64,000 bases of DNA from Candidatus Oxydemutatoraceae bacterium (GTDB lineage: Bacteria; Pseudomonadota; Gammaproteobacteria; Poriferisulfidales; Oxydemutatoraceae), in assembly GCA_965220085.1 (NCBI GenBank), contig CBDCOZ010000003.1, positions 1,568,001 through 1,632,000 of the forward strand, in the 5' to 3' direction. How positions within the stretch are numbered: position 1 is the first letter of the stretch; each line of letters starts with the position of its first letter. A program made the translations under genes and the position numbers. A model generated the notes under the pieces. That model was given only the letters and a program-made list of their open reading frames with translations. It did not search any database and was not told the DNA's origin. Shown piece by piece: positions 9,969-54,888 of this stretch.

Positions 9969-10455
9969 TATCGTAGCGGGCCTGCGAGAAGGAGTGTCGT
10001 GCGAGTGCTGCGGCTTGCTCGCGCTATCGCAGCGGGCCTGCGAGAAGGGGCGTGTCGTGCGAGTGCTGCGGCTTGCTTGCGCTATCGCAGTCGGCATTCA
10101 AGAAGGGGTGTGTCGTGCGAGCGCCGAGGATGGCTCGCGCTATCGCAGTCGGCATTCAAGGAGGGCGTGTCGTGCAAGCCACCGAGGCTTGCTTGCGTTA
10201 TCGCAGTCGGCCTTCAAGAGGGAGTGTGTCGTGCGAGTGCTGCGGCTTGCTTGCGTTATCGCAGTCGGCCTTCAAGAGGGAGTGTGTCGTGCGAGTGCTG
10301 CGGCTTGCTTGCGCTATCGCAGTCGGCATTCAAGAAGGGGTGTGTCGTGCGAGTGCTGCAGCTTGCTTGCGCTATCGCAGTCGGCATTCAAGAAGGGGTG
10401 TGTCGTGCGAGTGCTGCGGCTTGCTCGCGCTATCGCAGCGGGCCTTCCAAGAAGA
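9969..10455. repeat. Tandem array of eight ~58-bp units continuous with the 3' end of the FLEGPLR-tail gene
   Basis: Anchor TATCG recurs at 9969, 10025, 10083, 10141, 10199, 10257, 10315, 10373 and 10431 (spacing 56, then 58); typical unit TATCGCAGTCGGCATTCAAGAAGGGGTGTGTCGTGCGAGTGCTGCGGCTTGCTTGCGC; the last anchor overlaps the gene's stop codon. Confidence 0.93.
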
Positions 10456-12006
10456 GGCGCAGGCGCAAGCGTATATCAACCCCCAGGTTGATGGTCATCG
10501 TATAGGTGTCTGCGCTGTCTGCGACGCCATCGTGCACTGTGAAGGTGAAACTGGCGAAGTCGGAGGCGGCGCGAGCGCCCATCGGGGGATACCAGGTGAA
10601 AGTGCCATTGTCCAGATTGGCAACGGTCACCGAGGCGTCGTCGGTCACTGCGGTACCGCCGATGCGCAACGTGCCCGTGCCGACTGCTATGGTCTCAACG
10701 ATGGTGATGGCGACCAGGGCGGCGTTGTTATCCTCATCCATGAACGGGAAGTCGGAGACCTTGAAGACGAAGGGCGCGGCTAAGGTTGTGGTTGTGGGCA
10801 CCTTCACCGAATTGTCGGCGCTGGTAGGGGCATCGTTGACATTGCGGATGATGTTGCCTGTGGTGCAGCGTCGCTCGCTGTTGGGCGGCGTGAAGTTGTC
10901 CTCAAAGGATACGCACACCCGCACAAACTTGTCGACATGCGCCTGCAACGGCGTGAAAGTGGCGGCGGTGGCCCCGTCAATATCGGCGTAGTTGGCGTCT
11001 GTCAGGGGCGCGTCATTGCCCGGAGGATCAGCCTGTTGCCATTGCCAGGCGATGGTGGAGCGGTTAATACCGCTATTGGCATCTGCGATAGTGCCGGTGG
11101 TGGCGGTCAGGGTCACATCCTCGTTCCAGGGCGGCGCTGTCACATCGGGCAGACCGATGGCCTCCACCTGCGCCGTCGGCAACACCAGGTTTATGGTGAT
11201 GGTGGCCATGTTGCTCCGGGAGAGGGTGGGTGAAAATACGCTGAAAGTAAAGCTGGCATAGCCCTCAGCAGGTGCCGTTGCATCTTCGGGCAACCTGTAC
11301 ACTGGGCCGTTAATTCCTCCGAAGTCAGGGAGTAGTGCATTATTACCCTCCCCCCAGATAAGCCCAGCGGCACTATGAATAGAACCAGCGCAGTAGCAGG
11401 TTGGGTTTCTATTACTACACCTCCAATGTCATCGTCATCTTCGTCAAAGAAGGTGAAGTCATCTGACGAGAAGGCATAGCTCGCGGTACCCAGTGGAATC
11501 TCAATAGTGTTGTCCTGGGCAACAGGCAAATCATCCACATTCACCACGGCGGCGACGGAGGACCAGCATCGGGTCTCGCTGTTGCTGGCGTCATCCTCAA
11601 AGGTCGCACAGGCGCGGATGAACTTGCCGACATGGACCTGCAATGGGGTGAACATGGCCTCGGTCGACGTGGTGTTGGTTATATCAATGTAGGCGCTTTC
11701 CGTCGGTGTGCCGCTTACCGGGGCATCGGCTTGTGACCACTGCCAAGTCGGCGTGAACACGGTGAGGCCATCGGCGGTATCGCCTATCGTGCCTTGGGCT
11801 GCGGTCAGTGCGTTGTCCTCGTTGGGTCCCGTCGTAGTCAGATTGGTGCCGTCGGCTGCCGTCACCGCCGGTTCGCCGGTGGCGTTCTGCGCCTGCGCTT
11901 GAGCGCAAACAACAAACAGCGCCGGCAACAGAAGCGAGCAGAGGCTGCGCCGTATCATCGTTGCTCCCCGCCGCGCGGGGGCGGTATCGTAAGTTTTGCA
12001 GTTCAT
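10430..12006 (-). pseudogene. Exported Ig/cadherin-like repeat protein with LRLRLFLEGPLR tail, copy 1, split by an internal frameshift
   Basis: ORF 11191..12105 gives the signal peptide (MNCKTYD...SLLLPALFVVCAQAQAQ) and the first repeats; ORF 10430..11302 continues the same repeats in another frame and ends DIRLRLRLFLEGPLR*. Joined, they are colinear with the paralog at 50712. Confidence 0.8.
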
Positions 12007-12341
12007 GCTCTTGCTTTGATCAGGGCGAGCAACATCAGCGACCACAGACTCCCGCGGATTCGTGTTGCCTGCCGTTGCGCGGGAGTCATATCGAAAATTT
12101 GACAAATCATATCTACGGTTTTAATAACGACATGTTTCATGCATGCACGATTAGTGCCCTACTATACCATAAAACGCGCGTCACCCGCCAATGCCGTTGT
12201 ATCTTGCCGCATCCCTGTGCGCCCTGACATTCCCTTCTCCCCGCCGGATATTTGCAATCGCCGTTTTACAACAATTTCCGCTGTCGGGCGGGCGGAGTCG
12301 CGTACGCAAGCCCCCTATGCCGATTACGCTTGATGCCTGTT

Positions 12342-12664
12342 TGATGCCATGCCATATCGACACCTGCGGCAAATATTGTGCCCTGTCCTGAGTACTTGAA
12401 GCCTCGGCCCGCAATATACTTCCGGCAACCCGGAACATTTCCGGCATGACTCACCTTTGATACCAAGACACATCGGACGCCGGCGCCACACATTGTGCGT
12501 CGTGGGTGTGTGATGCTTCGGCCCGCAACAAACCCTCTTCAAATCCCAAACTCTTCCCGAAGCGTACGGCGAAAGCGCTCATTGAATGCGCATGATGCCA
12601 TGCCATATCGACACCTGCGGCAAATATTGTGCCCTGTCCTGAGTACTTGAAGCCTCGGCCCGCA
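12342..12664. repeat. 72-bp direct repeat pair (12342-12413 and 12593-12664)
   Basis: TGATGCCATGCCATATCGACACCTGCGGCAAATATTGTGCCCTGTCCTGAGTACTTGAAGCCTCGGCCCGCA occurs twice, 251 bp apart. Confidence 0.9.
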
Positions 12665-13001
12665 GCGCGCTCCCTTTTATAGCGTGTTGCTCCCATCATC
12701 TCAGAGCTTCAAGGTTTGGCGACATCCGCCCTCGTCCGGAATCTTCCACATTGGCCAGTTCATCGTCTCAGGGCTTCAAGTTGGCGACCATCGTTGCCTC
12801 CTGTACGCCGGAAGCGGCTATTCTACAGGCTTTTGCGGCCGTAGAATGTGTCGATATTGCGGCAACCCGTGTCAAAGCGGCAATCCGCAATGCTTCCGGC
12901 GCCAGCGCTTGGGAGCCCGCAGCGCCGCAAACAAATGCGCTGGTTGCGGGGCGAATATCTCGCACAGCGGCAGGCGCGGGCTTCGTGCGCGCCGCCATCG
13001 T

Positions 13002-13090
13002 TCCAATATCTGGTATACTGCGCTATCGGGGTGAGCAACTTGCTCCTTTAGCTCGCCCCGTCCGCCGCCGCTCCAATATCTGGTATACTG
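13002..13090 (+). promoter_or_regulatory. 19-bp direct repeat containing an extended -10-like motif, upstream of the Cys-rich gene
   Basis: TCCAATATCTGGTATACTG at 13002 and 13072; TG-N-TATACT resembles an extended -10 box. Confidence 0.5.
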
Positions 13091-13174
13091 GCATCATTCC
13101 GATTAGCCCGATGAAAGAGTCGCCCGCACACAACGCCGATGCCGTCACATCTCAGTTTGCATAAGTATTTCCGC

Positions 13175-15565
13175 ATGCCTCCTTCCTTCCCCTGCATTTT
13201 TGCCAGGGTTTGCGCAACACTGTTCGCCGGTGTCTTCGCCGCGAACACCGCACACGCACAAGCCGGCCAATCCAACTGCACCCTCAACGAGGCGCTCACC
13301 CAAGTTCCCTCCGCCCAGCGCGCGCAGGTCTCCATGCAATTTGAGGCCTGCGCGGACAAGGACTGGGCGGCGCAAAAGCATTTCCTCTTCGGCGAAGGGT
13401 TCGGCTTTGACTTCTGCTACTGCAATGTCCGAGTGCTGGATGCGTCCTCGTCGAGCGAATGCGACCACCCTGCGACGACCTCCGCACTCAGCGCCACCGT
13501 GGACAACAACTTCAACCTCCACTATTACTTCGGCGCGACCCTGCAGTATCTTCCGGAGCGGACGGAGGAAAACAAGGACGCCTGCTTTGTGGCGCATTGT
13601 TTGGACGGGAAGGAGCCGTCGGGGTTTAATATGAACGGCGAAACCGAATGCGCAACGCCCTCAACGGCGGTGACGGTTCGCGCCATAGCGATGCCGGCAG
13701 AGGGCGGGAGCGCTGCCATTATGGGCGCGACCACCGCCTCGGTGATTCTCAACACCACCGCAACCATCGTCGCCACTCCGGCGGAGGGATGGTATGTCGA
13801 TCGGTGGGAAGGCGACGGCGGCGCTTGCGACGGTCAAACCGGCAGGCTCGAAGGTTTCAGGGGCGTGGACACAGACGAGAAATCTTGTTCGCTGCCCGCC
13901 AGCGCCGGACTGACTGTGACGGCGCATTTTGCGTTGGCGCGGGTGACGGTTCGCGCCATAGCGATGCCGGCGGAAGGCGGGAGCGCTGCCATTATGGGCG
14001 CGACCACCGCCTCGGTGATTTCAAACACCACCGCAACCATCGTCGCCACTCCGGCGGAGGGGTGGTATGTTGACCGATGGGAGGGGGACGGCGGGGCCTG
14101 CGCCGGACAAGTTGGCGGGTTTGGAAGTTCCGGAGCGGCGGACACGGATGAAAAATCCTGTTCGCTGGCCGCGAGCGCCGGACTGCGGGTGACGGTTCGT
14201 TTCGCGTCGGCGCTGTGCGTTTTCAGCGAACTTCCGTCGGGGCTGCAAACCGAGTTGGTCTCCCTGCAGATTGACGCGTGCAACGCGAAAGGATGGGGGG
14301 CGCAAAAGCATATTTTCGGCGGGGCGGAAGTGTGCCACTGCAACATCAATGCGTGGGACGGGAGGAGCGGCGACCCGGCCCGGCAGTCGTGTTTGGACGG
14401 CTCCCTCCCGCCGCATCGAACCTCCGGGTTTTCCTCGCTTGGAGAGACAAACTCCAACACGGTCGCCCCATTTTACTTCGGCGCGACCCTGCAGTATCTT
14501 CCGGAGCGGACGGAGGAAAACAAGGACGATTGTTTTGTGGCGCGATGTTCGGGGTTGACGGAGCCGTCGGGTTTCAACACAAACGGGGAGACGGAATGCC
14601 TCGCGGCAAGCGGGGCGATTTGCGGGGGTTTGACTCCGGCGAAAAATTTTGACGGCGTCGCCTGCGTGGAAGGTTGCGCGACGGGAGCGACATTGAATTC
14701 GGCTACGAACACTTGCGAATGCGGCACGGGCAATCCTAACGACTGCCTGACGCCGAGCGAGGCGGTTTGCGCGGAGCTGACTCCGCCGAAGTTTTTTGAC
14801 GGGTCGGATTGCGTTGATTTTGCGACTTGCGCGGGGCTGTTGACTTTGAATCGGCAGCATAACGGGTGCGAGTGCCGCGCGCCGAATGTTGGGACGGCTT
14901 CGGATTGTCGGGCGCCGAATCCGATTGTTTGCGCCGCGCCGGCGGTTCGGCATCCGACGGCGAATGTTTGCCAATGCAATGCGCCGAATGTTGGGACGGG
15001 GGCGGACTGCAAAGCGCCAAGCGCGGAGGTTTGCGCGGCGCTGAGTCCGGGGAGGTTTTTTGACGGGTCGGGCTGCGTTGATTTTGCGGAGTGCGCGGGG
15101 CTGTTGGTTTTGAATCCGGCGCGCAACGGCTGCGAGTGCCGCGCGCCGAATGTTGGGACGGCTTCGGATTGTCGGGCGCCGAATCCGATTGTTTGCGCCG
15201 CGCCGGCGGTTCGGCATCCGACGGCGAATGTTTGCCAATGCAATGCGCCGAATGTTGGGACGGGGGCGGACTGCAAAGCGCCAAGCGCGGAGGTTTGCGG
15301 GGGGCTGAGTCCGGGGAGGTTTTTTGACGGGTCGGGCTGCGTTGATTTTGCGGAGTGCGCGATGGCGGCGACATTGAATGCGGCGGCGAATACGTGCGAA
15401 TGCAACTCGCCCAACGAAGGGACGGCGCAGGATTGCAAGGCGCCGAGCGCGGAAGTGTGCGGGGATTTGACGCCGGCGAAGCGCTTTGACGGAACTGCCT
15501 GCGTCGATGCGCCCGAAGACATCAACCTGCGTCTGCGTATCTTCCTTGAGGGCCCGTTGCGATAG
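13175..15565 (+). CDS. Exported cysteine-rich repeat protein with LRLRIFLEGPLR tail
   Basis: Signal peptide MPPSFPCIFARVCATLFAGVFAANTAHA|Q; two ~140-aa Cys modules (YFGATLQYLPERTEENKD), two ~91-aa beta-rich repeats (ATPAEGWYVDRWEGD, resembling divergent InlB B repeats), 88-aa Cys-rich tandem repeats; ends INLRLRIFLEGPLR*. Alternative start 13139. Confidence 0.88.
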   Translation: MPPSFPCIFARVCATLFAGVFAANTAHAQAGQSNCTLNEALTQVPSAQRAQVSMQFEACADKDWAAQKHFLFGEGFGFDFCYCNVRVLDASSSSECDHPATTSALSATVDNNFNLHYYFGATLQYLPERTEENKDACFVAHCLDGKEPSGFNMNGETECATPSTAVTVRAIAMPAEGGSAAIMGATTASVILNTTATIVATPAEGWYVDRWEGDGGACDGQTGRLEGFRGVDTDEKSCSLPASAGLTVTAHFALARVTVRAIAMPAEGGSAAIMGATTASVISNTTATIVATPAEGWYVDRWEGDGGACAGQVGGFGSSGAADTDEKSCSLAASAGLRVTVRFASALCVFSELPSGLQTELVSLQIDACNAKGWGAQKHIFGGAEVCHCNINAWDGRSGDPARQSCLDGSLPPHRTSGFSSLGETNSNTVAPFYFGATLQYLPERTEENKDDCFVARCSGLTEPSGFNTNGETECLAASGAICGGLTPAKNFDGVACVEGCATGATLNSATNTCECGTGNPNDCLTPSEAVCAELTPPKFFDGSDCVDFATCAGLLTLNRQHNGCECRAPNVGTASDCRAPNPIVCAAPAVRHPTANVCQCNAPNVGTGADCKAPSAEVCAALSPGRFFDGSGCVDFAECAGLLVLNPARNGCECRAPNVGTASDCRAPNPIVCAAPAVRHPTANVCQCNAPNVGTGADCKAPSAEVCGGLSPGRFFDGSGCVDFAECAMAATLNAAANTCECNSPNEGTAQDCKAPSAEVCGDLTPAKRFDGTACVDAPEDINLRLRIFLEGPLR
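14790..15360 (+). repeat. Intragenic 264-bp near-perfect tandem repeat (88 aa)
   Basis: GACGGGTCGG anchor at 14798, 15062 and 15326. Confidence 0.9.
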
Positions 15566-15790
15566 CCGGCATCACTCCGCTCAAGCCGCCGGCGCGTCCC
15601 GTTTGCTTCCTTCGTCGCATGGGTTTCTTGAACAGCGGTCTGCGGGTGCGGCCGACTGCGGCGCGGCAAGGGAGGGCTACCCGCCGCTCACCGTGTAAAA
15701 ACGGCAAGATGCCGTTTTACAACGGCTGCTCATCATCGGCTAGGCGGCGCGTATACGCCGCGGGGGCTTTATCGCCCGAGCGGAGGGCCC

Positions 15791-19987
<4,197 letters not shown>

Positions 19988-20024
19988 TTGTAATCAACTC
20001 CTTAAGTAATCGGGCGCGGCGGCA

Positions 20025-23000
20025 TTAAGTGTCTTCGCTGCTTCGCATATCAATATTGAGTCCGAGCGAACGGATCTCTTTCATCAAAACATTGAACGAC
20101 TCCGGCAGGCCAAACTCGGTGCTCTGCTCCCCGTTAACGATGCCTTTATACATCTTATTGCGGCCCCTCGTGTCGTCAGACTTCACAGTCAGCATCTCTT
20201 GCAACACATGCGCCGCGCCGTAGGCTTTCAGCGCCCACACTTCCATCTCGCCAAAACGCTGGCCGCCAAACTGGGCTTTGCCGCCGAGCGGTTGCTGCGT
20301 GATCATGCTGTAGGGGCCGGTCGAGCGGGCGTGCATCTTGTCGTCCACCAGGTGGTTGAGCTTCATGATGTACATATAGCCGACCGTCACCGGATGATCA
20401 AACGGATCGCCCGATCGTCCGTCGTATAGTACCGCTTGTCCGGACTCCGGCAGGCCGGCGAGTTTGAGCAGCCCTTTGATTTCCTTTTCGCTGGCGCCGT
20501 CAAATACCGGCGTTGCAATCGGCAGGCCGGCGCGCAAATTATTCGCCAAGGTGATGACCTCATCGTCGTCCAGCTTTTTCAGGTCTTCTTTTCTCACACC
20601 GTCGCCGTAGTCATATATCTCTTGCACAAAACTGCGGAGCTCGCCGACTTCCGCCTGTCGATCAAGCATCTCTCCGATCTTCAAACCCAAGCCGCGGGCG
20701 GCCCAACCCAGATGGGTTTCGAGTACCTGTCCGACATTCATACGCGAAGGCACGCCCAAGGGGTTGAGAACAATATCCACCGGCGTGCCGTCTTCCATAT
20801 ACGGCATGTCCTCAACCGGCGCGACCCTTGACACAACGCCCTTGTTGCCGTGCCGGCCCGCGAGTTTGTCGCCGGCTTGCAAACGGCGCTTGACCGCCAG
20901 ATATACCTTGACGATCTTTAAGATATCGGGAGCCATTTCGTCTCCGGCCTGCAAACGCTTGCGCTTGCTTGCAAAATCTTTCTCCGAGCGGCGGGTCTGT
21001 TCCTCCAACTGCCTGGCGAACTTTTCCAGTTGCTTGCTCACCGCATCATTGCGCATGCGGATATCAAACCATTTCTCGCGCTTGATACTATTCAGATACG
21101 CTTCGTTGATCTGCGTGGCGGAAGTCAGGCCGTTCGGCCCTTTGTCCGCAATCTTATTAGTGAGGAGTTTAGCGACGCGGGCATAGACATCGTCCTCATA
21201 GATACGCAACTCGTCTTTCATGTCCTTGCGCAGTCTTTTGATCTCATCTGTCTCAATCCACTTGGCGCGCTCGTCCTTGTCCATGCCGGTGCGAGTCAGC
21301 ACTCTGACATCGATGACCGTGCCTTCCATGCCGGAAGAAACCCGCAACGAATTGTCTTTTACATCGGCCGCCTTCTGACCGAAGATGGCCCGCAACAGGC
21401 TCTCTTCCGGGGTGACATGCGCCTCGCCTTTCGGCGTCACTTTGCCGACCAAGATGTCTCCCGATTTCACCACCGCGCCGACGCGGATAATCCCGCACTC
21501 ATCCAAGTTTGCAAGCAGGCTTTCGCTGATGTTCGGAATGTCCGCGGTGACTTCCTCGTTGCCCATCTTTGTCACGCGGGCGGTGCACGTCAGCTCTTCT
21601 ATATGAATCGTGGTAAAGCAATCTTCTTCGACCGCTTTCTCGGAAATGAGAATGGAGTCTTCAAAGTTGTATCCGTTCCACGGCATAAAAGCGATCAGCA
21701 TGTTTTGTCCCAGCGCCAACTCGCCGCGGTCGGTGGAAGAACCGTCGGCCAGCACATCGCCTTTCTCAATCATATCGCCGGGCGAAACCAGCGGCGACTG
21801 ATTGACACAGGTGTTCTGGTTGGAGCGGGTGTATTTGATCAGTTTGTAAATATCAACCCCCGCTTCGTCGTGCTGTGTTTCTTCGTCATTGACCCGCACG
21901 ACGATGCGCGACGCGTCCACGCTATCGACTACTCCGCCGCGTTGCGCCACCAGAGTCGCGCCGGAGTTAGACGCGACAAACTTTTCCATGCCGGTACCAA
22001 TCAGGGGTTTCTCGCTGATTAGAGTGGGCACCGCCTGGCGTTGCATATTGGAGCCCATCAACGCGCGGTTGGCATCGTCGTGCTCTAGGAACGGAATCAG
22101 GGCGGTCGCGATTGAAACGATTTGCCGCGGCGAGATATCCATGTACTCAACCTTATCGGGCGCGGACAACATGGACTCGTTTTGCTTGCGACAGGAGACT
22201 ATCTCGTCTATCAGATTGCCTTTGGTATCCACTTTTGTGTTGGCTTGCGCGATGGTATATTGGCCTTCTTCGATCGCCGACAAGTACTCGACTTTATTGG
22301 TCAGGCGCCCCTTGTTTACTTTCAGGTACGGCGTCTCCAAAAAGCCGTGATGGTTCGGTTGCGCATAGGTCGCCAACGAGTTTATCAGGCCGATGTTCGG
22401 GCCTTCCGGAGTCTCAATCGGGCATAGTCTTCCATAGTGTGTCGGGTGCACATCGCGCACTTCAAAGCTGGCCCGCTCGCGCGTCAGACCGCCCGGCCCC
22501 AGCGCCGATATCCTGCGCTTGTGGGTAATCTCGGACAGCGGGTTGTTCTGGTCCATAAATTGGGACAGTTGGCTGGAGCCGAAGAATTCCTTCACCGATG
22601 CCGTAACCGGCTTGGCGTTGATCAACTCCTGCGGCATCAAGTTTTCCGCCTCGGCCGAGGTCAGGCGCTCCCGCACGACCCGCTCTATTCTCAACAAACC
22701 CGTGTGTACGGCATTCTCAACCATCTCGCCGACACAGCGCACACGGCGGTTGCCGAGATGATCGATGTCATCGACCGTGTCCTTGCCATTGCGGATGGCG
22801 ATCAATACTTTGAGCACATCGACAATATCCTGCTTGTCGAGCGTGCCTCTGATCTCCTCTTTTGTCTCGCGTCCGATCCGGCTGTTGAACTTCATGCGTC
22901 CGATTTCGGACAGGTTGTAACGTTCCGGACTCATGAAGATGCTGTTGAAAAGCGCTTCGGCCGCATCTTTGGACGGCGGTTCTCCCGGCCGCATCATTTT

Positions 23001-24143
23001 GTAAATATCCACTTTTGCGTTGGCTTCTTTTTCCTCGTACTTTTGGGTCGAATGGGTGTTTGACTCCAATCGCAGGGTCAGGGAGATAAAGGGGCCGTAA
23101 TCGATCTCGTTGGTATATATGGTCTTGAAGGTTTTCACTTTCGCCTGCGCCATACGTTCCAGAATCTCGGCGGTGATTTCATCGTTAGCCGATACGACTA
23201 CCTCGCCGGTCTTCTTGTCCACGATGTCGTGCGCCAGCGTCTTGCCGACGATGTAATCCGCCGGCACTTGTATCACCGATATCTTCGCTTCCTTGAGCTT
23301 CTTTACGTGGGCGGCTGTGACCCTGCGCCCGGCCTCCACCAAAACTTTTCTGCCGACGACGATGTTAAATTGCAGTATCTCTCCTCGCAGACGCTCCGGT
23401 ATGATGCGCAACTTGTAGATCCCGGCGCTGTAAGCGATGCGATCGGTATCAAAAAAGGTATCCAAGATTTCCTCGTCGCTCATCCCCATCGCATGGAGCA
23501 AAACCGATGCCGGCAACTTGCGGCGGCGGTCTATGCGTACGAACAGGCAATCCTTGGGATCAAATTCAAAATCCAACCAGGAACCGAAGTAAGGAATGAT
23601 GCGAGCGGAGTATAAGACCTTGCCGGAAGAGTGCGTCTTGCCTTTATCGTGCTCAAAAAACACGCCCGGCGAACGGTGTAATTGCGATACCACGACGCGC
23701 TCTGTGCCGTTGATAATAAAGGAACCGGTATCTGTCATCAGCGGTAATTCGCCGAGGTAGACTTCTTGTTCCTTCATTTCGCCGGTGGGGCGGGGACGGT
23801 CTTTGTCGCGCTTCTTATCCATCAGCACCAAGCGTAATTGCACTTTCAGCGATGCGGCATAACTGCGTCCGCGCATCTTGCATTCCCGTACGGTGAGCTC
23901 CGAATCGCTCAATTCATAACCCAAGTATTGAAGCTCGGCGTTGCCGGAACTGCTGACGATCGGGAAAACAGAATCCAGCGCTCCGTGCAAGCCCTTTTTC
24001 TTGCGCTTTTCATGCGCTATCCCTTTCTGCAGAAAGTTCTTGTACGCATCGAGTTGCATCTGTAGCATGTCGGGCACCTCAAGCCTTTCGACTTGTCTGC
24101 CAAACTTTTTGCGAATCCGCTTTCTCTCGGTGAAGTTATACAC
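20025..24143 (-). CDS. rpoB: RNA polymerase beta subunit
   Basis: [50 protein letters not shown]. Confidence 0.99.
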
Positions 24144-41661: not shown

Positions 41662-41737
41662 TCCCCGGTAGCTCAGTTGGCAGAGCGGGTGGCTGTTAAC
41701 CACTAGGTCGGCGGTTCGAGCCCGTCCCGGGGAGCCA
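41662..41737 (+). tRNA. tRNA-Asn (GTT)
   Basis: TCCCCGGTAGCTCAG...CTGTTAA...GTTCGAG...GCCA. Confidence 0.95.
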
Positions 41738-41749
41738 CACAGAAAGCCA

Positions 41750-45350: not shown

Positions 45351-45353
45351 TTT

Positions 45354-46037: not shown

Positions 46038-46040
46038 AAA

Positions 46041-46628: not shown

Positions 46629-46631
46629 CGC

Positions 46632-47330
46632 TCAGCCTCCGACCAAAGGAACAAACCGCACCATACCGAGCGACCGCTCGATGTAATCATCCCCGCGGCG
46701 GGTAATCAAGATCAACTTCTGGTCGGCGCCATCGGCTCCGACAGGAATCACCAAGCGACCGCCGTCGGCGAGTTGTCGCAACAATAGCGGCGGCACTTGG
46801 GGCGCGGCAGCGGTCACGATGATGCTGTCATAAGGCGCGAACTGCGGCCACCCTTTGCGGCCATCGGCACAACGAAAATGGATATTGTCGCAAGCCAACT
46901 CCTTCAGTATCCGCTTTGCTTTGCGTTGCAAAGAGGCGATGCGCTCTACCGTGAAGACCCGCGCCACGAGTTGCGACAATATCGCCGCCTGATAACCGGA
47001 ACCGGTGCCGATCTCAAGAACATTATCCAAGGCTTTGTTATGCAACAGCATCTCGGTCATGTACGCAACGACATAGGGCTGCGAGATGGTCTGTTCGCAA
47101 CCGATCGGAAGCGCTTGATCCTTGTAAGCCAGATGGACAAACTCTTCTTCGGTAAAGCGGTCGCGCGGAATTTTCAGCAGCGCATCGAGCACCCGCTGAT
47201 TTTTAATGCCCTTGGCCCTCAGGTTGCGAATCAAGTTTTTCTTGACCGGCAAAAGCGCCTCTCGGCGAGAGCCGCTGTTTGCCTTCGTTGCCGCGCCTTC
47301 AGTCTTCAAAGCAACCGGCGACCTTCGCAA
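46632..47330 (-). CDS. pcm: Protein-L-isoaspartate O-methyltransferase
   Basis: QTISQPYVVA, VLEIGTGSGYQAA, VRFVPL; start uncertain. Confidence 0.95.
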   Translation of the reverse strand: MRRSPVALKTEGAATKANSGSRREALLPVKKNLIRNLRAKGIKNQRVLDALLKIPRDRFTEEEFVHLAYKDQALPIGCEQTISQPYVVAYMTEMLLHNKALDNVLEIGTGSGYQAAILSQLVARVFTVERIASLQRKAKRILKELACDNIHFRCADGRKGWPQFAPYDSIIVTAAAPQVPPLLLRQLADGGRLVIPVGADGADQKLILITRRGDDYIERSLGMVRFVPLVGG

Positions 47331-48048
47331 TGGAATCGTGATGCGTCAAATCCACATGCAAAGGCGTGATGGAAACAACATGATCATTGACCGCGTGGAA
47401 ATCGGTGCCCGGCCCCGCATCCTGCTCGGGCCCGGCCGCGCCGACCCAGTAAATGGGCTTGCCTTGCGGATCCTGATCCTTGATCACCGGTTCGGAACGG
47501 TGGCGGCTGCCCAAGCGCGTGGCTTGCATTCCTCGTATGGCCCGCATCGGCACATCGGGGATATTCACATTGAGGATGATCTCCGAGGACAGCGGCTGTG
47601 TGATGGACTTTTCTATAATGGATTTGGCAATACTGCCGGCGCAATCCCATTCCTTCGCTTCGCCCGCGGTCACCAGAGAAAAAGCAATTGCCGGAAATCC
47701 CAGAAACCGTCCTTCGGTCGCCGCCGCAACGGTGCCGGAATAAATGACATCATCGCCGAGATTCTGGCCGAGATTGATTCCGGAAACCACCATGTCGGGA
47801 GGGTCGGAATCCAGCAAGCCTGTGATTGCAAGGTGCACGCAATCGGTCGGGGTGCCATCGACCGCATAAATATTTTGCGCCATTTTCTGCGCGCGCAAAG
47901 GACGATCAAGCGTGAGCGAATTGCTTGCGGCGGAGCGATTCACCGTCGGCGCGACTACCGTAATTCTGGCAACGGATGCCAGTTGGCCGCACAGCACCGC
48001 GATGCCCGGACTGTCGTAGCCATCGTCATTGCTGATCAAAATATGCAT
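47299..48048 (-). CDS. surE: 5'/3'-nucleotidase SurE
   Basis: ILISNDDG, GTPTDCV, SGINLGQNLGDDVIYSGTV. Confidence 0.97.
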   Translation of the reverse strand: MHILISNDDGYDSPGIAVLCGQLASVARITVVAPTVNRSAASNSLTLDRPLRAQKMAQNIYAVDGTPTDCVHLAITGLLDSDPPDMVVSGINLGQNLGDDVIYSGTVAAATEGRFLGFPAIAFSLVTAGEAKEWDCAGSIAKSIIEKSITQPLSSEIILNVNIPDVPMRAIRGMQATRLGSRHRSEPVIKDQDPQGKPIYWVGAAGPEQDAGPGTDFHAVNDHVVSITPLHVDLTHHDSIAKVAGCFED

Positions 48049-48076
48049 AATATTCGGATACTGTTATTAGGATAGA

Positions 48077-48574
48077 ATGCGTCTGTTGAATAAGTCAAAA
48101 CAAGAAGAAAGCTTCTCTGAGCTATTTGAGCGGCATAAGCCCCCTGCGCCCGCCGTTAAAAAAGCCCGGCCCGTTGCGCCATCGTCAGTAAGAGATTATA
48201 ACGATAAGACGGCAAAATCGCACACCCATTCCGCTCCCCAAGAGACCCGGTTTCGCAGCGGAATACAAAAAAGTATCCGCCTGCGACTCAGAAAGGGCAA
48301 AATAAGATACGAAGATACTCTGGATTTGCATGGCTTCAAACGCGCCGAAGCGCTCATACTGATGGCGAATTTTTTGCAGGCCGCGCATGCCGACGGCAAG
48401 CGTTGCGTGCGAATCATCTTCGGCAGCGGTCGCCGTTCGCCGACCGGAGCGGTGCTGAAACCCGCCGTTCAATCATACCTGTGCGATTGCGAATACATCA
48501 ACGGATATGCGCCGACCACCCTCCGTGACGGAGGCGACGGCGCTGCTTACGTCTTGCTCAAAAGCCCGCGTTAA
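48077..48574 (+). CDS. Smr/MutS2 domain protein
   Basis: LDLHG...IIFGSGRRS...GGDGAAYVLL. Confidence 0.9.
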   Translation: MRLLNKSKQEESFSELFERHKPPAPAVKKARPVAPSSVRDYNDKTAKSHTHSAPQETRFRSGIQKSIRLRLRKGKIRYEDTLDLHGFKRAEALILMANFLQAAHADGKRCVRIIFGSGRRSPTGAVLKPAVQSYLCDCEYINGYAPTTLRDGGDGAAYVLLKSPR

Positions 48575-49848
48575 TGGACAAAGACCCGACACCAAAGCAT
48601 CAACCGAATTGCGCCGACGGTTCGGATATCCTGTCGCTATCGCCGGACCTTGCGCGCGCAAAGATTCTCGATGCGGTAACACCGATCACCGAATCGGCAC
48701 GGCTGGACATACGGCAAGCGCTCGGGAGGACGCTTGCCCATCCGGTGCGCTCGCAGATCAACGTTCCCGCACACCCCAATTCGGCAATGGATGGTTACGC
48801 GGTGCGCTTTGATGATTTGGATAAGCGGGCAACCGTCACCCTCACGCTTGCCGGCCATGCCTTTGCGGGTCGCCCGTTTGCGGGAACGCTGCTGCCGGGA
48901 CAGTGCGCGCGCATAATGACCGGCGGCGTCATGCCAAACGGCAGCGACACCGTTGTCATACAAGAGCAGGTCGAACGCGAAGGCGATGAGGTTCGCATCG
49001 AGGGCGCGCGCCACCGATACGGGCAGAATGTGCGGCAAGCCGGCGAAGACATTGCGGCGGGTACGATTGCGATTGCCGGCGGAACTCGGCTCATGCCCGC
49101 GCACATCGGACTGCTGGCATCGCTTGGCATAGCCCAAGCGGAAGTATTGCGACAGATCAAAGCGTGTATCTTTTCGACCGGAGACGAATTGCGACCGATC
49201 GGCGCGCCGCTTGACACAGGCGAAATTTATGACAGCAACCGCTATACGCTGGTTGCGATGTTACAACGGCTCGGCGCGCAGACAACCGACTTGGGAGTCA
49301 TCAAAGACGATGAGGAATCCCTCGGCGCGGCCTTTGCAAAAGCGTCCGCCGATTACGATGTGGTTATCACATCGGGAGGCATGTCGGTCGGCGAAACCGA
49401 CTTTACCAAAAAAGTCTTTGCCCGCGCCGGCAACATCGACTTTTGGAAACTCGCGCTCAAGCCGGGGCGACCGGTCGCTTTTGGCAAACTGTCAAACGCG
49501 CTCTACTTCGGCTTGCCCGGTAACCCGGTCTCCGTCGTCGTCACGTTCTATGCGCTGGTGCAACCCGCCCTCAATAAAATGCTGGGGCTGTCGGATATCC
49601 GCCCGCTCAAACTGCGCGCGCGTTGCGCTTCGCCGTTACGCAAGCGACGCGGCAGAGTTGAGTTGCAGCGCGGGATACTGGCAGCCGATGCCGGCGGGGA
49701 ACTCCGTGTCACGTCAACCGGCACACAGGGCTCCGGAATACTCAGTTCGGTAACCAGAGCAAACTGCTTCATTGAATTGCCCGCCGAATGCGAAGGGATT
49801 GAAGCCGGCGACGACGTAGCGGTTATTCCGTTTGCGGGGCTGGCATAG
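48574..49848 (+). CDS. moeA: Molybdopterin molybdotransferase
   Basis: SAMDGYAV, STGDEL, TSGGMSVG, GLPGNPVS. Confidence 0.96.
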   Translation: MDKDPTPKHQPNCADGSDILSLSPDLARAKILDAVTPITESARLDIRQALGRTLAHPVRSQINVPAHPNSAMDGYAVRFDDLDKRATVTLTLAGHAFAGRPFAGTLLPGQCARIMTGGVMPNGSDTVVIQEQVEREGDEVRIEGARHRYGQNVRQAGEDIAAGTIAIAGGTRLMPAHIGLLASLGIAQAEVLRQIKACIFSTGDELRPIGAPLDTGEIYDSNRYTLVAMLQRLGAQTTDLGVIKDDEESLGAAFAKASADYDVVITSGGMSVGETDFTKKVFARAGNIDFWKLALKPGRPVAFGKLSNALYFGLPGNPVSVVVTFYALVQPALNKMLGLSDIRPLKLRARCASPLRKRRGRVELQRGILAADAGGELRVTSTGTQGSGILSSVTRANCFIELPAECEGIEAGDDVAVIPFAGLA

Positions 49849-49899
49849 AAACCCCGAGCGGACATCGTTTGTTTCTGCGGTCTGTATTCCGGCATGCGT

Positions 49900-50349
49900 T
49901 CATGCGACCTCGCCCTCGGCCTTGACCCACCGCTTGGAATCCGGCAATGATTCCTTTTTCCAAAATGGCGCCTTTGATTTCAACTCCTCAACCAAAGCGC
50001 GATTGACCGCGTACGCATCGCGACGGTGCGCCGCCCACACCGCGACCATAACGATCGGATCCCCGGGACGCACCCTGCCGATGCGATGTATGACAAGCGT
50101 ACCCTCAAGGTCCCGGCGGTCGGCTGCCGTTGCGACCGCATCGGCGATGTATTTCTCGGTCATGCCTTCATAGTGCTCAATGCGCATAGAAGCGACCGCA
50201 TCGCCCCGATTAAAATCCCGCATCGTACCGACAAACAAGGACAATGCGCCATAGCGACCCTCCTTGAGGTTTTTTTTCTGATACTCTTGCGCCTCGCGCC
50301 AAGGATCAAATTGCTTATCCAAAATTTGTATGCATGTGTTCATAGACAT
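49900..50349 (-). CDS. moaE: Molybdopterin synthase catalytic subunit
   Basis: FVGTMRD, HRIG, AHRRDA, LKSKAPFWKKE. Confidence 0.95.
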   Translation of the reverse strand: MSMNTCIQILDKQFDPWREAQEYQKKNLKEGRYGALSLFVGTMRDFNRGDAVASMRIEHYEGMTEKYIADAVATAADRRDLEGTLVIHRIGRVRPGDPIVMVAVWAAHRRDAYAVNRALVEELKSKAPFWKKESLPDSKRWVKAEGEVA

Positions 50350-50427
50350 GACTTTCTCTCCATCGCAGCCAGTGTATCACACACAGTCATCATGCATCTC
50401 GGCTTGCGAATCGGGAACCCTCCGCTT

Positions 50428-50487
50428 GACTCCGCCCGGCCGACAACGGAAGCGGTTGCAAAGGCCATGTTCCGGCGCTATTTCACA
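50428..50487 (-). repeat. Left copy of an imperfect inverted repeat bounding the 50.4-55.6 kb island
   Basis: Reverse complement TGTGAAATAGCGCCGGAACATGGCCTTTGCAACCGCTTCCGTTGTCGGCCGGGCGGAGTC matches 55517-55577. Confidence 0.75.
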
Positions 50488-50711
50488 CAGGGGCATAGCG
50501 GCGGGCAGATGCCGTTGTCTTTATGCTGCGAAGGAGACATCGCCAATGTCTCGTTCAGCCCGCAAGCGCACCCATAACGCCGACAGCGCCGATCGCCGAA
50601 GCTGTGACAGACCGTCATAGCCGCGCCGACACCGCACAAATTCAATGCGGTGTGCCGTAGCGCTTCCGAATTAGCAATGTGCGCACTCAATTCCGCGCAC
50701 GGGTACTTGCG

Positions 50712-52354
50712 CTACCGCAACGGCCCTTCCAGGAAGACGCGCAACCGCAAGCGCAAGCGCTCCGCCAGATGTATGGTCATCATATGGGTTGCGCTGGATA
50801 AGGCGCCATCGCTCACGGTGAAGGTGAAACTGGCGTAATTGGGCTGTGCGAGCTGGTCCGATGCCGGATAGTAGGTGATGGCGCCGATGTTGTCAGCCAT
50901 CACAATGTGATCCACGGAAGCGGGGGAACCGCCCACTCGCAAAGTGCCGACGGATGGCAGAGTCTTTATGGTGATGGCGGTCAGGCTGTCGCCTTCCTCG
51001 TCCATGTACGGGAAGTCGGAGACCTTGAAAGCGTAGGGCGCGTTTTCGGTTGCCCTGATAGATACCGTCACCGAATCGTCGCTACTGACGGGGGCATCGT
51101 TGATGCTGGATATGCGGGCGGCGTCGGAGCAGAGGGCAGGGGATGCTACGGTGCCGCCTTCGGATGCCGGGGCGGCGTGTTTGTCCATGAAGAATGCGCA
51201 GGCTCTTATGTGCATTCCCCCCTGGGCCTGCAATGGGGTGAAAGTGGCCCCGGTGGCCCCGGCTATGGGACCGTAGTCGGCATCCGCCGGGGCGCCGCTG
51301 GCAGGGGCCGGGGCCTGGTACCATTGCCATTGCAGGGTGTCAGTGTCTATGCCGTTGGGTTCGGTTATGCCTCTGACGCTGGCGGTAAGCATCACATCCT
51401 CGTTGCTAACAGCGCCGATGGGGGTTAATGCGGCGAGGAGCGGAATGGGTCTGTATACCGTGGGTTTGCCGGCGGCGGCCTGCCCCCGGCTGTTTATTAT
51501 GTCTATGGTGAGGGTGGCGGCTTCGGCGGCTTCATCGGCACGGGTGGCGCGACCGCCATTATCCCGCACTCTGTATGTGAATGTGGCATAGCCCGCGCCA
51601 ACGGCGGGGTTGGCATCCGGATAGTATGCCAGATAATCCACTTCGGTGACATCCAGAAAATTGTTGGCACGGATACATCTGGGGTTGGCAGTGCAATGAG
51701 TGCTAAGAGATGAGCCATCCAAAAACGCATCCGCCAGAATACCCCGCGTGGGCACGGACACTATGTAGATGCCATCGAGGGTGTTGCCATCCTCATCGGA
51801 AAAGGGGAAGTCCGCCCGCGCAAAGAGGTACGGGGCGGCGGAACTGGCGTTGTCCGGCACCATTATGGCGCTGTCGCCGCCAACAGGCCGGTCGGCCACA
51901 TTGGCCACTGCGGCGACCGAGGTCCAGCATCGGGTCTCGTTGTTGCCGCCGTCATCGGCAAAGGCGGCGCAGACGCGGATGAACTTGCCGACATGCTCCT
52001 GCAACGGGGTGAATGTGGCGGCGGTCGCCGTGGTGATGTTGGCGTAGGCGCCGCCGCCAGTGTCGGCCACGCTCCATTGCCAAGTCGGCGTGAAGGTGGT
52101 GATGCCATCGGCATCGCCTATCATGCCTTGGACTGCGGTCAGTGCGCTGTCCTCATTGGGCCCCGTCGTGGTCAGGTTGGTGTTGTCCGCCGCCGTCACC
52201 GTCGGGGTACCGGTGGCGTTCTGCGCTTGCGCTTGGGTGCAGACGGCAAACAGAGCCGGCAGAATAAGCGTCCAGAGGCTAAGCCGAGCTAGTGTCGCCC
52301 ACCGATGCGGGGGGGGGGGGGGGGGGTATAGGTATTATTAATTTTTAAGCTCAT
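50712..52354 (-). CDS. Exported Ig/cadherin-like repeat protein with LRLRVFLEGPLR tail, copy 2; out of frame at a C18 tract
   Basis: ATG 52354 MSLKINNTY, C18, then HRWATLARLSLWTLILPALFAVCTQAQAQ|NATG continuing into ORF 50712..52199; total 1643 nt, so 16 or 19 C would restore the frame. Confidence 0.85.
52309..52326 (-). repeat. Homopolymer G18 (C18 on the coding strand)
   Basis: Counted directly; starts 28 nt after the first base of the ATG. Confidence 0.95.
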
Positions 52355-52610
52355 GCTATTTTTTAGGATCATGGTCTTTCTCCTGACAGATGTAGCCGTA
52401 CGGTAGTATGTACACAAACGCTTAATGAGGCACAGTAATAAGAGGCACAAACAACACTCGGTTGTTTGTGTGTGTTTAATCTAATTGTCTGTGGTTTCTT
52501 CAAATTATTTGTATTCCATAAACTGTTTGCGGATTGCTTAATGTCGCACCATACCATAAATTCAGTTATTTACAAGTTCAACTGTTGCTTTCCCCTGATG
52601 GATTCCGTGC

Positions 52611-52638
52611 ACTATACCACAAAGTGAGTCCTTTGCAA
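52611..52638 (-). promoter_or_regulatory. Putative sigma70 promoter of copy 2
   Basis: TTGCAA-N16-TATAGT with TG extension and upstream A tract. Confidence 0.55.
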
Positions 52639-52913
52639 GCGCTTTTTTTTCAAATCGCAATGACTGCCTCTGGCGACCGCTTGCGTCGGCGTTGCCGAGG
52701 CGTTGCTATTGCCTGTCAGCCTTTGCCGAAGCCAGCAATCCGGCATGTTTCAGTCATTTGCAAGCGTATCCGCCCCCTTGTGCGCCCATAATACTCCCCT
52801 TCCCGCCGCTTAAACATGCTTTAAGCAGTGTTCACATATCGCTTGCGCACCCAACACTCCCGCCGGTGCGCCTGCGGGGATGGTGCGATAGCAACGTGTC
52901 GGAGCACTCGCGC

Positions 52914-54888
52914 TTACCGCAACGGGCCTTCAAGGAAAACGCGCAAGCGCAAGCGCAAGGCGGTTGCCACCACACGAGCGTCGGCGGAGCACAGCGGCCC
53001 CTCGGCGGTGCCTATGCTATCGGTGAAGCTGGCGCAGGCGCGGATGTATCGACCGGCATGTGCTTGCCGGGGAGTAAAAATAACATCGGTAGCGCCGGTG
53101 ATGGCGGCGTAGGCGTTGTCCATCGGGGCGCCACTGTCCGGGGCCGGGGCAGATTGCCATTGCCAGCGGATGCTACCCCGGTTGATGCCGTTGGGTTCGA
53201 TGATGCCATCTGCGGATGCAGCCAGCGGTATGTCCTGCAGGTAAGCGGTGTCGGTGGCAAGGGCGGCAGTCACCGTGGGTGCGCCGGTGGCATCCGTCGG
53301 GTCGGAGGTAATCAAGTTTATCGTGAGGGTGGCGATGCGGACGCTGGCGTTGTTGGTGCCCGCCGGGTCATCGCCGTTGTCGGTCACATTGAATCTGAAG
53401 GTAGCGTAGCTACTCTGGGCACTCTGCCCGCTGGCAGGGTAGTACGTAAGGTCCGCGATGTCGGCAACGGCTATGGTGTCGTCCGCCATGGCGGCGGCGG
53501 AGCCGTTGCGCAGGGCGCCGGATGCCGGCAACGATTCCAGAGTGACGCTGGCCAAGTCATCGCCATCCTCGTCGGCGAACGGGAAGTCGCTCGCCTTGAA
53601 AGCGTAGGGGCTGGCCATCGTCGCACCCATAGGCACATTGATGAAGCCGTCTTGCGCCACCGGCGCATCGTTGACATTGGTTGTCCGGACTGCGGCGGAA
53701 CAGAGCGGGCCCTCCTCTGCCGGGGTGGCGTGGCGATCCATAAAGGTTGCGCAGACTCTTATGTATTGGTCTGTACGGGCCTGCGTAATGACGAATGCTT
53801 CGGCGGTGGCGCCGGCTATGGCGGTGTATGCGCCGACGGCCGGGGTGCCGCTGGCCGGGGTCGGGGCAGATTGCCATTCCCACCTCAGAGTTCTCCAGTC
53901 TATGCTGTTGAGATCGGCAATGCCAAAGTAGTTGGCGGTCACCCGGGCGCCCTCGGCGGCGCTGGCGGACGGTGATGTTGTGGGCGCGCCGGTGGCCGCC
54001 ATCTGGTCCGGCGATGTCAGATCTATGAGCATGAAATTAACTCCGGTGTGATTGATGCCATCATCGTTGTCGGCCACCGGCCGGTAGACAAAGGTGGCAT
54101 AGAATCCGGTGGGTTGCTGACCGGGTATCGGGTACCAGGCCAGAGCGCCGGCGGTCAATTGGGCCACGGTTACGGTTACGGGGTTTCCGGTGCCAGTAGA
54201 GACGGGGTTGCCATTCAGGGTCAGGGTGCCCCCCGGTATCAGGCTATCAAAGGTGATGGCGGCCAGCATATCGCCATCGGGGTCTATGAACAGAAAGTCT
54301 GACGCCTTAAACCGGTATGGATTGTCGGCGGTGGCGGATGCCGGCACCGCACCGCTGTGGCGCAGGGAGGTTTGGGGCAGGTCGTTGACATCGGTCACTC
54401 TGACGGGGGCAGAGCAGATGCTGGCGGTGCGTATGCGGCTGTCCTCGGTGGCGGGGTCGCCGCCCTCGGCGGTACCCCGGCCATCGGTGTAAAAGACGCA
54501 CAGGCGCAGGTTCTTGTTCACATGGTCTTGCGAGAGCGGGGCGTATGTGTTGACGTCCCAAGCCGCCTCTTCCCATCCCAGGCCGACGGTAGTACTGAGT
54601 TGCCAACTGAAGTCAAATTGTCCTGCCGCGGGCAGGCCATCCTCATCGCTCAGGCCGGTCACGCTGGCATTGACTGTCTGCATTTGGGCCACGGTGGTGA
54701 TGAGGTCGGCGCTCCCGTCCAACACCATGCCGATGGCGCCCTGCGGCGCAGTGTTGGTCTGCGCTTGCGCTTGGGTGCAGACGGCAAACAGGGCCGACAG
54801 AATAAGCGCCCAGAGACTAAGCCGAGTTAGTGTCGCCCACCGATGCGGGGGGGGGGGGGGTATGAGTATTATTAATTTGTAAGTTCAT
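52914..54888 (-). CDS. Exported Ig/cadherin-like repeat protein with LRLRVFLEGPLR tail, copy 3; out of frame at a C14 tract
   Basis: ATG 54888 MNLQINNTH, C14, then signal peptide ending CTQAQAQ continuing into ORF 52914..54728; total 1975 nt, so 13 or 16 C would restore the frame. Confidence 0.85.
54847..54860 (-). repeat. Homopolymer G14 (C14 on the coding strand)
   Basis: Counted directly; same position relative to the ATG as the C18 tract. Confidence 0.95.

Follow-up and report, generated by a model that had tools for sequence, protein, structure and literature searches.

In cellulosomes, X-module-dockerin (XDoc) units fasten scaffoldin to cell-surface proteins. These units, for which structures are available (PDB 2b59, 4u3s, 5g5d), consist of an immunoglobulin-like (Ig-like) sandwich followed by a dockerin with two calcium loops, and they lie at the C-terminus of large secreted proteins. 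In chaperone-usher and type V (FimA/Mfa1) pili, another chain supplies the alternating-hydrophobic strand that an incomplete Ig-like fold is short of, and in type V pili this donor strand is C-terminal. Man-made pairs such as SpyTag/SpyCatcher and split GFP also use a short peptide that completes a truncated partner, SpyTag forming an isopeptide bond. The Sec-exported, often giant surface proteins of the type IX secretion system (T9SS) share yet another C-terminal element, a folded C-terminal domain (CTD) of 70-100 aa that is present in cis and cleaved by a sortase. Here, we analyzed a window of 64,000 nucleotides from Candidatus Oxydemutatoraceae bacterium (assembly GCA_965220085.1, contig CBDCOZ010000003.1, positions 1,568,001 to 1,632,000 of the forward strand), in which four genes, called A to D below, encode proteins ending in a common tail, hereafter the tag (in one written form, LRLRLRVFLEGPLR). 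This tag is probably the detached first beta-strand of an XDoc-like anchoring module that is completed in trans and docks its cargo at the cell surface.

A sequence-only reading of the window had listed four such tails, and all are present where it placed them: ...DIRLRLRLFLEGPLR-TAG in gene A (stop at 10430, minus strand), INLRLRIFLEGPLR-TAG in gene B, ...ERLRLRLRVFLEGPLR-TAG in gene C (stop at 50712, minus strand), and ...ALRLRLRVFLEGPLR-TAA in gene D (stop at 52914, minus strand). The motif extends well beyond these genes. The source genome, G000 (2,492,841 bases in 3 contigs, with the window inside it), contains 219 FLEG[PA] sites in a six-frame scan, and 214 of them read FLEG[PA]LR directly followed by a stop; a 30-nt degenerate pattern for the tag also gave 214 matches, against 0 for the reversed control. 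Tag-ended open reading frames (ORFs) of at least 150 aa account for 180 of the 214 and sum to 157,812 aa, or 19% of the 2.49 Mb genome, with six ORFs spanning 4,985 to 15,193 aa. The tail consensus across the 180 ORFs is [LIV]-R-L-R-L-R-[LIV]-F-L-E-G-P-L-R and then the stop. The last seven residues (FLEGPLR) are invariant in 180/180, as are L at position -10 and R at -9, while L, I, or V occupies position -8.

In the set of 214 tails, the information content is about 2.0 bits at codon positions 1 and 2 and 0.56-1.5 bits at position 3, and TAG (135), TAA (51), and TGA (28) all serve as stops. Invariant first and second positions combined with a variable third position and three different stops indicate selection on the peptide and not a DNA repeat, and a DNA-repeat origin of the shared tail was rejected on this codon analysis. 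The sequence-only reading had argued for such selection from the synonymous codons and the TAG and TAA stops of the four window tails; these differences were seen, and the 214 tails back the conclusion. A related explanation seeks the reason for the common 3' end in the DNA: it would mark a site of recombination or duplication or be the vestige of a lost module, and the peptide would now be functionless. The tandem duplication of some gene 3' ends (a 58-bp array at 9994-10454 of the window, and 156- and 168-bp repeats), the weak conservation of CGCGAG immediately 3' of the stop, and the conserved 5' leaders and 3' ends, which could drive cassette exchange, would all suit it. We nevertheless consider it very improbable: third positions vary around residues that are invariant in 180/180 ORFs, three stops are used, conservation of the DNA fades about 12 nt past the stop with none beyond +12, and the tag is kept in other genera with different codons and end residues.

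The tag does not resemble the sorting signals with which it was compared, as had been claimed from the window. With three Arg in 14 residues and no hydrophobic helix, it differs from the signals built on a transmembrane (TM) helix (PEP-CTERM, GlyGly-CTERM, LPXTG, MYXO-CTERM), and the NCBIfam sorting-signal models did not match the four window proteins. The beta-signal of the beta-barrel assembly machinery (BAM) does not apply either, as the last residue is Arg in 180/180 and the passengers (Ig-like, cadherin, protease) are not barrels. The T9SS CTD models TIGR04183 and TIGR04131 matched none of the four window proteins and none of 45 sequences of the module described below. More generally, no Pfam or NCBIfam model matched the tail when the four window proteins were scanned, so that the check for an existing model proposed with the sequence-only reading came back empty. 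At the DNA level, the 30-nt pattern was found 0 times in 40 relatives, including 22 genomes of other families of the order, and a strict 33-nt pattern 0 times in the genome contigs of 185,579 species and 0 times in JGI metagenome contigs (sets in which the source genome is possibly not included). When the tail region of P0002, the main ORF of gene C, served as query in a word-index protein search, 8 proteins were returned, all of the source genome, and an ESM Atlas search with the tag gave no usable match. In the literature, FLEGPLR, FLEGPL, and VFLEGP were not found, and the sole match to LFLEGP was a duck proteomics paper.

The tail had also been likened to KVFLEGPY as the first strand of a domain, and this domain exists. 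A metagenome scan for KVFLEGPY yielded 80 readable loci, in 51 of which the motif opens a conserved domain starting with the pattern lKVFLEGPY..M.t.L....P...PY......VDWVLVELR......aFL..DG..VD.DG......YY.VVRHRNHL.IMS. The 47 complete modules measure ~210-250 aa from motif to stop and contain two DxNxDG loops before a ...QVP end. The intact module (~220 aa) is composed of the strand [LV]x[KR][VA]FL[EQ]G[PA][YF], a beta-sandwich with VDWVLVELR and HRNH motifs, and two dockerin-like loops, for which an alignment of 44 sequences gave the calcium-loop consensus GDxxxDGxIxxxD and DxNLDGxVxxxD. It has no model of its own in Pfam (3 examples searched) or NCBIfam (45 examples), and only 2/45 members touched an NCBIfam dockerin model. 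An AlphaFold2 (AF2) model of one intact module reached a pLDDT of 97.5 and a pTM of 0.93. XDoc or scaffoldin chains took every place among its top 10 Foldseek matches (E 2.3e-5 to 1.4e-2, TMt 0.35-0.67); the best was 4u3s_B (E 2.3e-5), the XDoc chain of a type II cohesin-dockerin complex, and 2b59_B and 5g5d_B were found too. The sequence profile of the module likewise matched dockerins (2b59_B, E 2.7e-4, profile positions 149-214). Taken together, the fold and profile matches identify the module as an X-dockerin-like C-terminal unit. The intact form is common in records of Ignavibacteriota, Chlorobiaceae, and Melioribacteraceae, where it is C-terminal on large proteins.

When the module was searched with hmmsearch against the 33,995 six-frame ORFs of the source genome, exactly one significant match was obtained (E 4.4e-20, ORF G000:C3:469157-470134), and no further copies, in cis or free-standing, were found among these ORFs. 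The encoded protein, hereafter the acceptor, is 320 aa long from the ATG at 469175 (G000:C3:469175-470134). It begins MKIQLKQLVFYFATTMAFVVLLSAHANA/QRSMNTGLSDFIPADDPY... (MKIQ...AHANA/QRSMNTGL, the slash marking the end of the signal peptide) and aligns with the module from profile position 15 through its C-terminal ...VQPN, which makes it a signal peptide plus the module minus its first strand. The ATG has a stop 6 codons upstream of it, which leaves no room for a hidden strand. The second calcium loop, DINMDQTAAPSD, retains D, N, D, D. The sequence-only reading had recommended looking for a partner short of the KVFLEGPY strand, and the single module homologue of this genome is short of exactly that strand. 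That reading saw no cognate machinery in the window, and the acceptor gene indeed lies ~1.1 Mb away on the same contig.

Strandless modules are not peculiar to this genome. With the strandless acceptor as the phmmer query, 1,053 proteins among 1.84 billion representatives were retrieved at E <= 0.001. The best 150 of these comprise 104 proteins in which the module, strand included, is in cis (median distance to the C-terminus, 223 residues), 42 short strandless proteins in which the domain starts near the N-terminus from profile position >=13, and 4 other forms. None of the 42 short proteins (0) carries the motif upstream, and 37/42 have a hydrophobic N-terminal stretch. A locus search with the single acceptor returned only 3 distant loci, all of the in-cis form. 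Three proteins of 464-657 aa (P0052, P0054, and P0068) carry a strandless module with a DPYC motif in their C-terminal half, preceded by ...VEINVLLGGGVRG..., and may represent a fused form or one with a degenerate strand.

The 104 in-cis strands were retrieved without using the motif and therefore provide a strand profile that is unbiased for it. Their logo reads [LVA]-[ND]-[LVI]-[K>R,T]-[V>A]-[F>I,Y,L]-L-[E>Q]-G-[P>A]-[Y,F]. A position-specific scoring matrix (PSSM) built from them placed the tags on top of the 33,995 ORFs of the source genome, with 5 non-tags within the first 202 ranks; the median score was 13.3 bits for the tags, and the 99.9th percentile of non-tags was at 8.5 bits. Residues 29-320 of the acceptor were then co-folded with residues 363-495 of P0002, which hold the last domain of gene C and its tag. 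The ipSAE was 0.80, 0.80, and 0.79 in three runs and 0.00 in the best of 3 controls; the mark used is reached by 58/80 solved complexes and 2/110 mismatched pairs, a calibration that is only rough, as own alignments were used. The runs share at least 57% of their contacts, and the partner pLDDT is at least 83. On the partner, the interface consists of residues 479-491 (AERLRLRLRVFLE) and residue 380, and the closest acceptor contacts (137-139, GRV; 170-171, AV; 213-217, GAFDF) fall in the strands of the sandwich. In silico, then, the acceptor is short of one strand and the other chain supplies it, as in donor-strand complexes, and the amphipathic strand that the sequence-only reading had imagined as inserted by strand complementation is placed by the model in the acceptor sheet; the dedicated exporter that it named as another option stays a candidate. 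We hold split-domain complementation itself with good confidence.

The distribution of the two halves was examined in 19 species genomes of the family, including the source genome, and in 22 genomes of other families of the order. Of the other family genomes, 13/18 yielded acceptor homologues, against 0/22 of those from other families. At the acceptor loci of 7 relatives, 9/9 full-length ORFs consist of a signal peptide and the strandless domain, often in tandem. G001, from a sister genus of the same family, has a different arrangement: its 19 acceptor matches all lie inside giant ORFs, and the four ORFs that were read contain the intact module in cis, with the strands VKARAWLQGAY, VRAGVFLQGAY, VGARVYLQGAY, and IRARVFLQGAY. 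The module is C-terminal in 3/4 of these and near the N-terminus of a 687-aa ORF in the fourth, with 454 residues following. The passenger repeats of G001 are homologous to those of the tag-bearing giants of the source genome (E down to 2e-35), which points to one adhesin family that carries the whole module in one genus and the strand alone in another.

Tags were counted in the family genomes as FLEGxxx-stop ends, forward and reverse added together, and compared with a control. The source genome has 217 (control 2), followed by G007 with 45 (0), G015 with 28 (2), G016 with 27 (2), G002 with 20 (1), G017 with 20 (1), G011 with 17 (0), G018 with 16 (2), G003 with 8 (2), G012 with 6 (1), and G013 with 5 (2); the remaining eight family genomes have 0-2 (control up to 12). 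No enrichment was seen in the 8 genomes of other families searched with this pattern, and the tag appears on these counts to be restricted to this family. Its end residues differ by genus (FLEGPLR, FLEGPLQ, FLEGALE, FLEGALQ). A relaxed tag pattern gave no excess over the control beyond small sets in G004, G006, G009, G010, and G012. Five ORF ends in G009 read LEGAYP-stop (C1:294374, 304970, 317621, 340850, and 374206) and may be another dialect of the tag. Computed support for a detached strand that is completed in trans thus comes from tag/strand homology, the strandless acceptor, co-occurrence, synteny (below), and the co-fold model, and from these we infer that the parts bind in the cell and lie at its surface, as well as which protein is the anchor and how export proceeds.

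The acceptor gene stands in a conserved setting. In the source genome, the order is gspH-I-J-K-L-M, two rhodanese genes, an unknown 203-aa ORF, the acceptor, a gene for a 1369-aa protein, and a rhombosortase gene (TIGR03902, 96 bits against a cut-off of 84), with a secretin ~15 kb upstream. The corresponding genes of G007 are, in order, GspE (663.6 bits), rhodanese, acceptor, one for a 1484-aa protein that ends in a TM segment and an RRRR tail, and rhombosortase (144 bits), and those of G011 are rhodanese, acceptor, and one for a 1511-aa protein. A small rhodanese gene lies directly upstream of the acceptor in these three genera (L140:6549-6944 and 7916-8434, the two copies of the source genome; L153:7169-7576; L155:5696-6106). 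The large proteins of G007 and G011 are 30% identical across ~1,300 residues; BLASTP between the 1369-aa protein and its syntenic G007 counterpart was not significant, the two having diverged beyond its reach. The 1369-aa protein is secreted, has a choice-of-anchor U match near the threshold (30.3 bits, cut-off 32), and ends, by eye, in a Gly run (GGGGGGGG), a 19-residue hydrophobic stretch (AIALNEVIGLLALLGLVAYGI), and a basic RRQRRYE. A cohesin identity was considered for this neighbour and rejected, as there was no PDB sequence match and no PF00963 match; a weak cohesin lead for its N-terminus came from the Atlas (score 0.86, Cohesin on 18% of cluster members). Rhombosortase substrates of Vibrio cholerae are reported to be lipid-modified and brought to the cell surface by a type II secretion system (T2SS) (PMC6219818). 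No work joining rhombosortase with dockerin was found in the literature.

From this setting, the following sequence of events can be proposed. Sec would export both the cargo and the acceptor, the tail of the cargo would enter the open sheet of the acceptor by donor-strand complementation and so rebuild the module, and the dockerin-like half would keep the complex on the cell surface. The most likely anchor would be the conserved ~1400-aa neighbour with its C-terminal membrane anchor, which adjoins the rhombosortase, and passage across the outer membrane would use the adjacent T2SS. This particular anchor and the T2SS route are put forward tentatively and stand somewhat on the doubtful side.

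The same locus permits another reading, in which the tag is a T2SS targeting signal and the strandless protein is a recycled periplasmic adaptor or chaperone that catches the tail and hands the cargo over; the complementation step is kept, and its place and purpose differ. The acceptor gene ends the gsp cluster in two genera, one gene for ~200 cargo genes suits a recycled factor more than a one-to-one anchor, and giant Sec-dependent proteins require an outer-membrane route, for which a secretin is present. The module, however, is not bound to gsp clusters, its intact form being common on the C-termini of large proteins in Ignavibacteriota, Chlorobiaceae, and Melioribacteraceae, and its fold and calcium-loop repeats are those of an anchoring X-dockerin. 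Donor-strand complexes such as those of chaperone-usher pili are also usually very stable rather than transient. We regard such an adaptor as unlikely, although it deserves attention, and continue to favor surface docking by the completed module.

The tag is not always C-terminal. In three secreted proteins encoded outside the window (G000:C1:23868-25292, C1:36358-38001, and C3:1171425-1173515), it stands close to the N-terminus, in the order signal peptide, shared 20-residue segment NPMTVPQDVLT.AQA, L[KR]LRLRVFLEGPLR, and Gly/Ser linker. The tag is thus a portable strand for which a free C-terminus is unnecessary. Two of these proteins have PPC repeats, and the third is weakly trypsin-like (Trypsin_2, E 0.019; TAYHC...GGSSGG). 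Together with the alternating L-R-L-R-L-R pattern of the tail, this trypsin-like protein with a tag near its own N-terminus could speak for a tag that acts without the acceptor, as a cationic amphipathic strand binding lipopolysaccharide or self-assembling, or as a recognition or cleavage site for a protease. Such a role would leave unexplained why the sole module homologue lacks exactly this strand, why G001 has the module in cis, and why the co-fold succeeds; moreover, the invariant FLEGPL is the module's own motif and amounts to more than a charge pattern. We judge it improbable, and the tag is better read as the missing strand. Two of the N-tagged genes lie in a variable island (G000:C1:20001-40000) together with two Fic/DOC genes, a HicB-like domain, and a truncated gidA/mnmG fragment; the island also encodes a tag-bearing protein with a subtilase-like Ser motif judged by eye and no Pfam match. 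No machinery was seen in this island (C1:20-40 kb).

The passengers are more diverse than the two types noticed in the window, which are Big_9/cadherin-like proteins and a Cys-rich protein with Flg_new_2. Single-linkage clustering merged 177/180 of them into one cluster (154/180 at 60% coverage), and 14 mutually dissimilar proteins were therefore chosen greedily. The domain scan outside the window covered 13 of these 14 and the 3 N-tagged proteins, leaving out ~166 others, and added PPC repeats, He_PIG, fn3, true cadherin repeats, a furin-like Cys-rich region, and two subtilases (Peptidase_S8) with Calx-beta. A signal-peptide-like N-terminus was recognized by a crude script and by eye in 126/180 tag ORFs of at least 150 aa, and cleavage would probably leave an N-terminal Gln, consistent with the AQA/Q sites seen. 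At the start of 78/180 tag ORFs, the coding strand has a poly-C tract of at least 8 nt, and these are 78 of the 100 C/G homopolymers of that length in the genome, making the tag proteins its main candidates for phase-variable genes. The tracts measure 14-28 nt, with a short conserved leader (M.LKNSM.L.INNT.T) before them and the signal peptide after them. A frame-setting homopolymer in the 5' coding region, as in phase-variable contingency genes, is thus present; switching itself is a candidate property, and errors of tract length in the assembly are possible.

Within the window, gene A (10430..12006, minus strand) is a disrupted cadherin/Ig-like tag protein with weak Cadherin_3 and ZirU matches. 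The signal peptide MIRRSLCSLLLPALFVVCAQAQAQ and the rest of its N-terminal part fall in ORF 11191-12120, and ORF 10430-11428, in another frame, holds its C-terminal part; the tag, IRLRLRLFLEGPLR followed by TAG, occupies 10430..10474 on the minus strand, as read from translation and DNA. Directly after gene A lies the 58-bp tandem array (9994..10454, minus strand; 7.9 copies, 88% matches). Its unit consists of the last ~24 nt of gene A, encoding a degenerate LEGRLR-stop, and 34 nt of 3' flank, and each unit closes a short frame-shifted ORF. Comparable runs of duplicated gene ends were seen at C3:513743-514211 (period 156) and C3:908957-909461 (period 168).

Gene B (13139..15565, plus strand) encodes, by translation and domain scan, an 808-aa Cys-rich protein with the signal peptide …AANTAHA/QAGQ, two Flg_new_2 repeats, and the tag. 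Gene C (50712..52372, minus strand), a Big_9/cadherin-like tag protein in the domain scan, includes P0002, a 495-aa ORF at 50712-52199. From its ATG at 52372, the passenger and signal peptide are out of frame in this assembly across an 18-nt poly-C tract (52309..52326, minus strand) that separates the leader MILKNSMSLKINNTYT from the signal peptide; the tract has 17 nt in one short-read contig, and real heterogeneity and sequencing error are both possible. Gene D (52914..54906, minus strand) is an Ig/cadherin-like tag protein, also by domain scan, with P0003, a 604-aa ORF at 52914-54728; from its ATG at 54906, the signal peptide and passenger are again out of frame in this assembly, across a 14-nt poly-C tract within the 5' coding leader (54847..54860, minus strand). 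The Sec signal peptides ascribed earlier to all four proteins therefore hold for gene B, while gene A is disrupted and genes C and D have theirs out of frame. Between the tag genes are housekeeping genes; the tag genes are dispersed across the core genome and form no single island. Ribosomal protein S12 was recognized by eye from translation at 9174-9554 (minus strand), and the ORFs at 15791-19987 (1398 aa) and 20025-24143 (1372 aa), both on the minus strand, are probably rpoC and rpoB, judged from size and position.

Several points weigh against surface docking by a completed module. All the evidence is computational and none of it experimental. The co-fold joins what are in effect two halves of a split domain, so that its score could stem from likeness to intact folds; the model shows a tag able to complete the acceptor fold, which does not establish binding in the cell, and the pLDDT of the acceptor within it is only 60. 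The first dockerin loop of the acceptor is degenerate and contains an insertion, and a single acceptor gene serving ~200 cargo genes would demand high expression. Of the 180 tag ORFs, 54 fail the crude signal-peptide script, some of them being fragments or frame-shifted genes. The two halves do not always occur together: G012 and G018 (85% complete) have tags and no acceptor found with this query, and G004, G006, G009, and G010 have strandless acceptors and no FLEGxxx-stop enrichment. For the proposed anchor, the GlyGly_CTERM model TIGR03501 matched nothing in the source genome at E <= 1, the tail of the neighbour included, and the 1369-aa protein is therefore called a probable rhombosortase substrate only. 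Nothing in the source genome reached the cut-off of cohesin PF00963, residues 40-260 of the neighbour had no homologues in near or shorter lengths and one weak match among 20 relatives, and its single-sequence AF2 model (pLDDT 35) is unusable.

No published description of the split module system and no Pfam or NCBIfam model for it was found. If true, it would be a new sorting principle, in which the shared signal is neither a cleaved peptide nor a folded domain, being instead the missing piece of another protein's domain. It would explain how 19% of a 2.5 Mb genome can be spent on variable surface proteins without a 220-aa anchor on each, give a function to a widespread C-terminal module without a Pfam or NCBIfam model (1,053 representatives, E <= 0.001), and tie T2SS and rhombosortase loci to cargo display. 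The tag alone would let the surface repertoire of these organisms be read from sequence, and the natural peptide/acceptor pair might become a tool for protein display. In its fullest form, the proposal is a natural tag-and-catcher: a strand cut off an X-dockerin-like module would persist as a tag of 12 residues on phase-variable surface proteins, up to ~200 in number and with giants of 15,000 aa among them, and one secreted strandless adaptor, its gene next to the T2SS and rhombosortase genes, would complete the fold in trans and dock all cargo on one lipid-anchored surface protein, as a Gram-negative counterpart of the cellulosome anchor that works by donor-strand complementation. For this full form, we see the case as nearly balanced, leaning slightly to doubt.

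Compared with the described systems, the intact module has the architecture of XDoc, an Ig-like sandwich and then a dockerin with two calcium loops at the C-terminus of large secreted proteins. In this genome, by contrast, the cargo carries the first strand and a gene of its own encodes the remainder, the organism has an outer membrane as well as a T2SS and a rhombosortase, a cohesin was not detected, and identity to XDoc is 11-15%. The completion of an incomplete Ig-like fold by a strand of another chain is shared with chaperone-usher and type V pili; here, however, the protein is not a pilin that polymerises, neither a chaperone nor an usher was seen near the acceptor, a single type of acceptor would face ~200 unrelated cargoes, and the completed domain is of the dockerin type. 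As with T9SS cargo, Sec-exported and often giant surface proteins have a common C-terminal element and probably an N-terminal Gln once the signal peptide is removed, but the tag is 12-14 aa long and not a folded CTD. In keeping with the GlyGly-CTERM/rhombosortase/T2SS system as described for VesB of Vibrio cholerae (PMC6219818), a rhombosortase and a T2SS flank the acceptor, and the neighbour has a Gly run, a helix, and a basic cluster. The tag itself, in contrast, has no TM helix, and the many-to-one link would go via a protein adaptor and not a protease. Unlike the engineered split tags, it would be, if true, a natural and genome-wide use of their principle.

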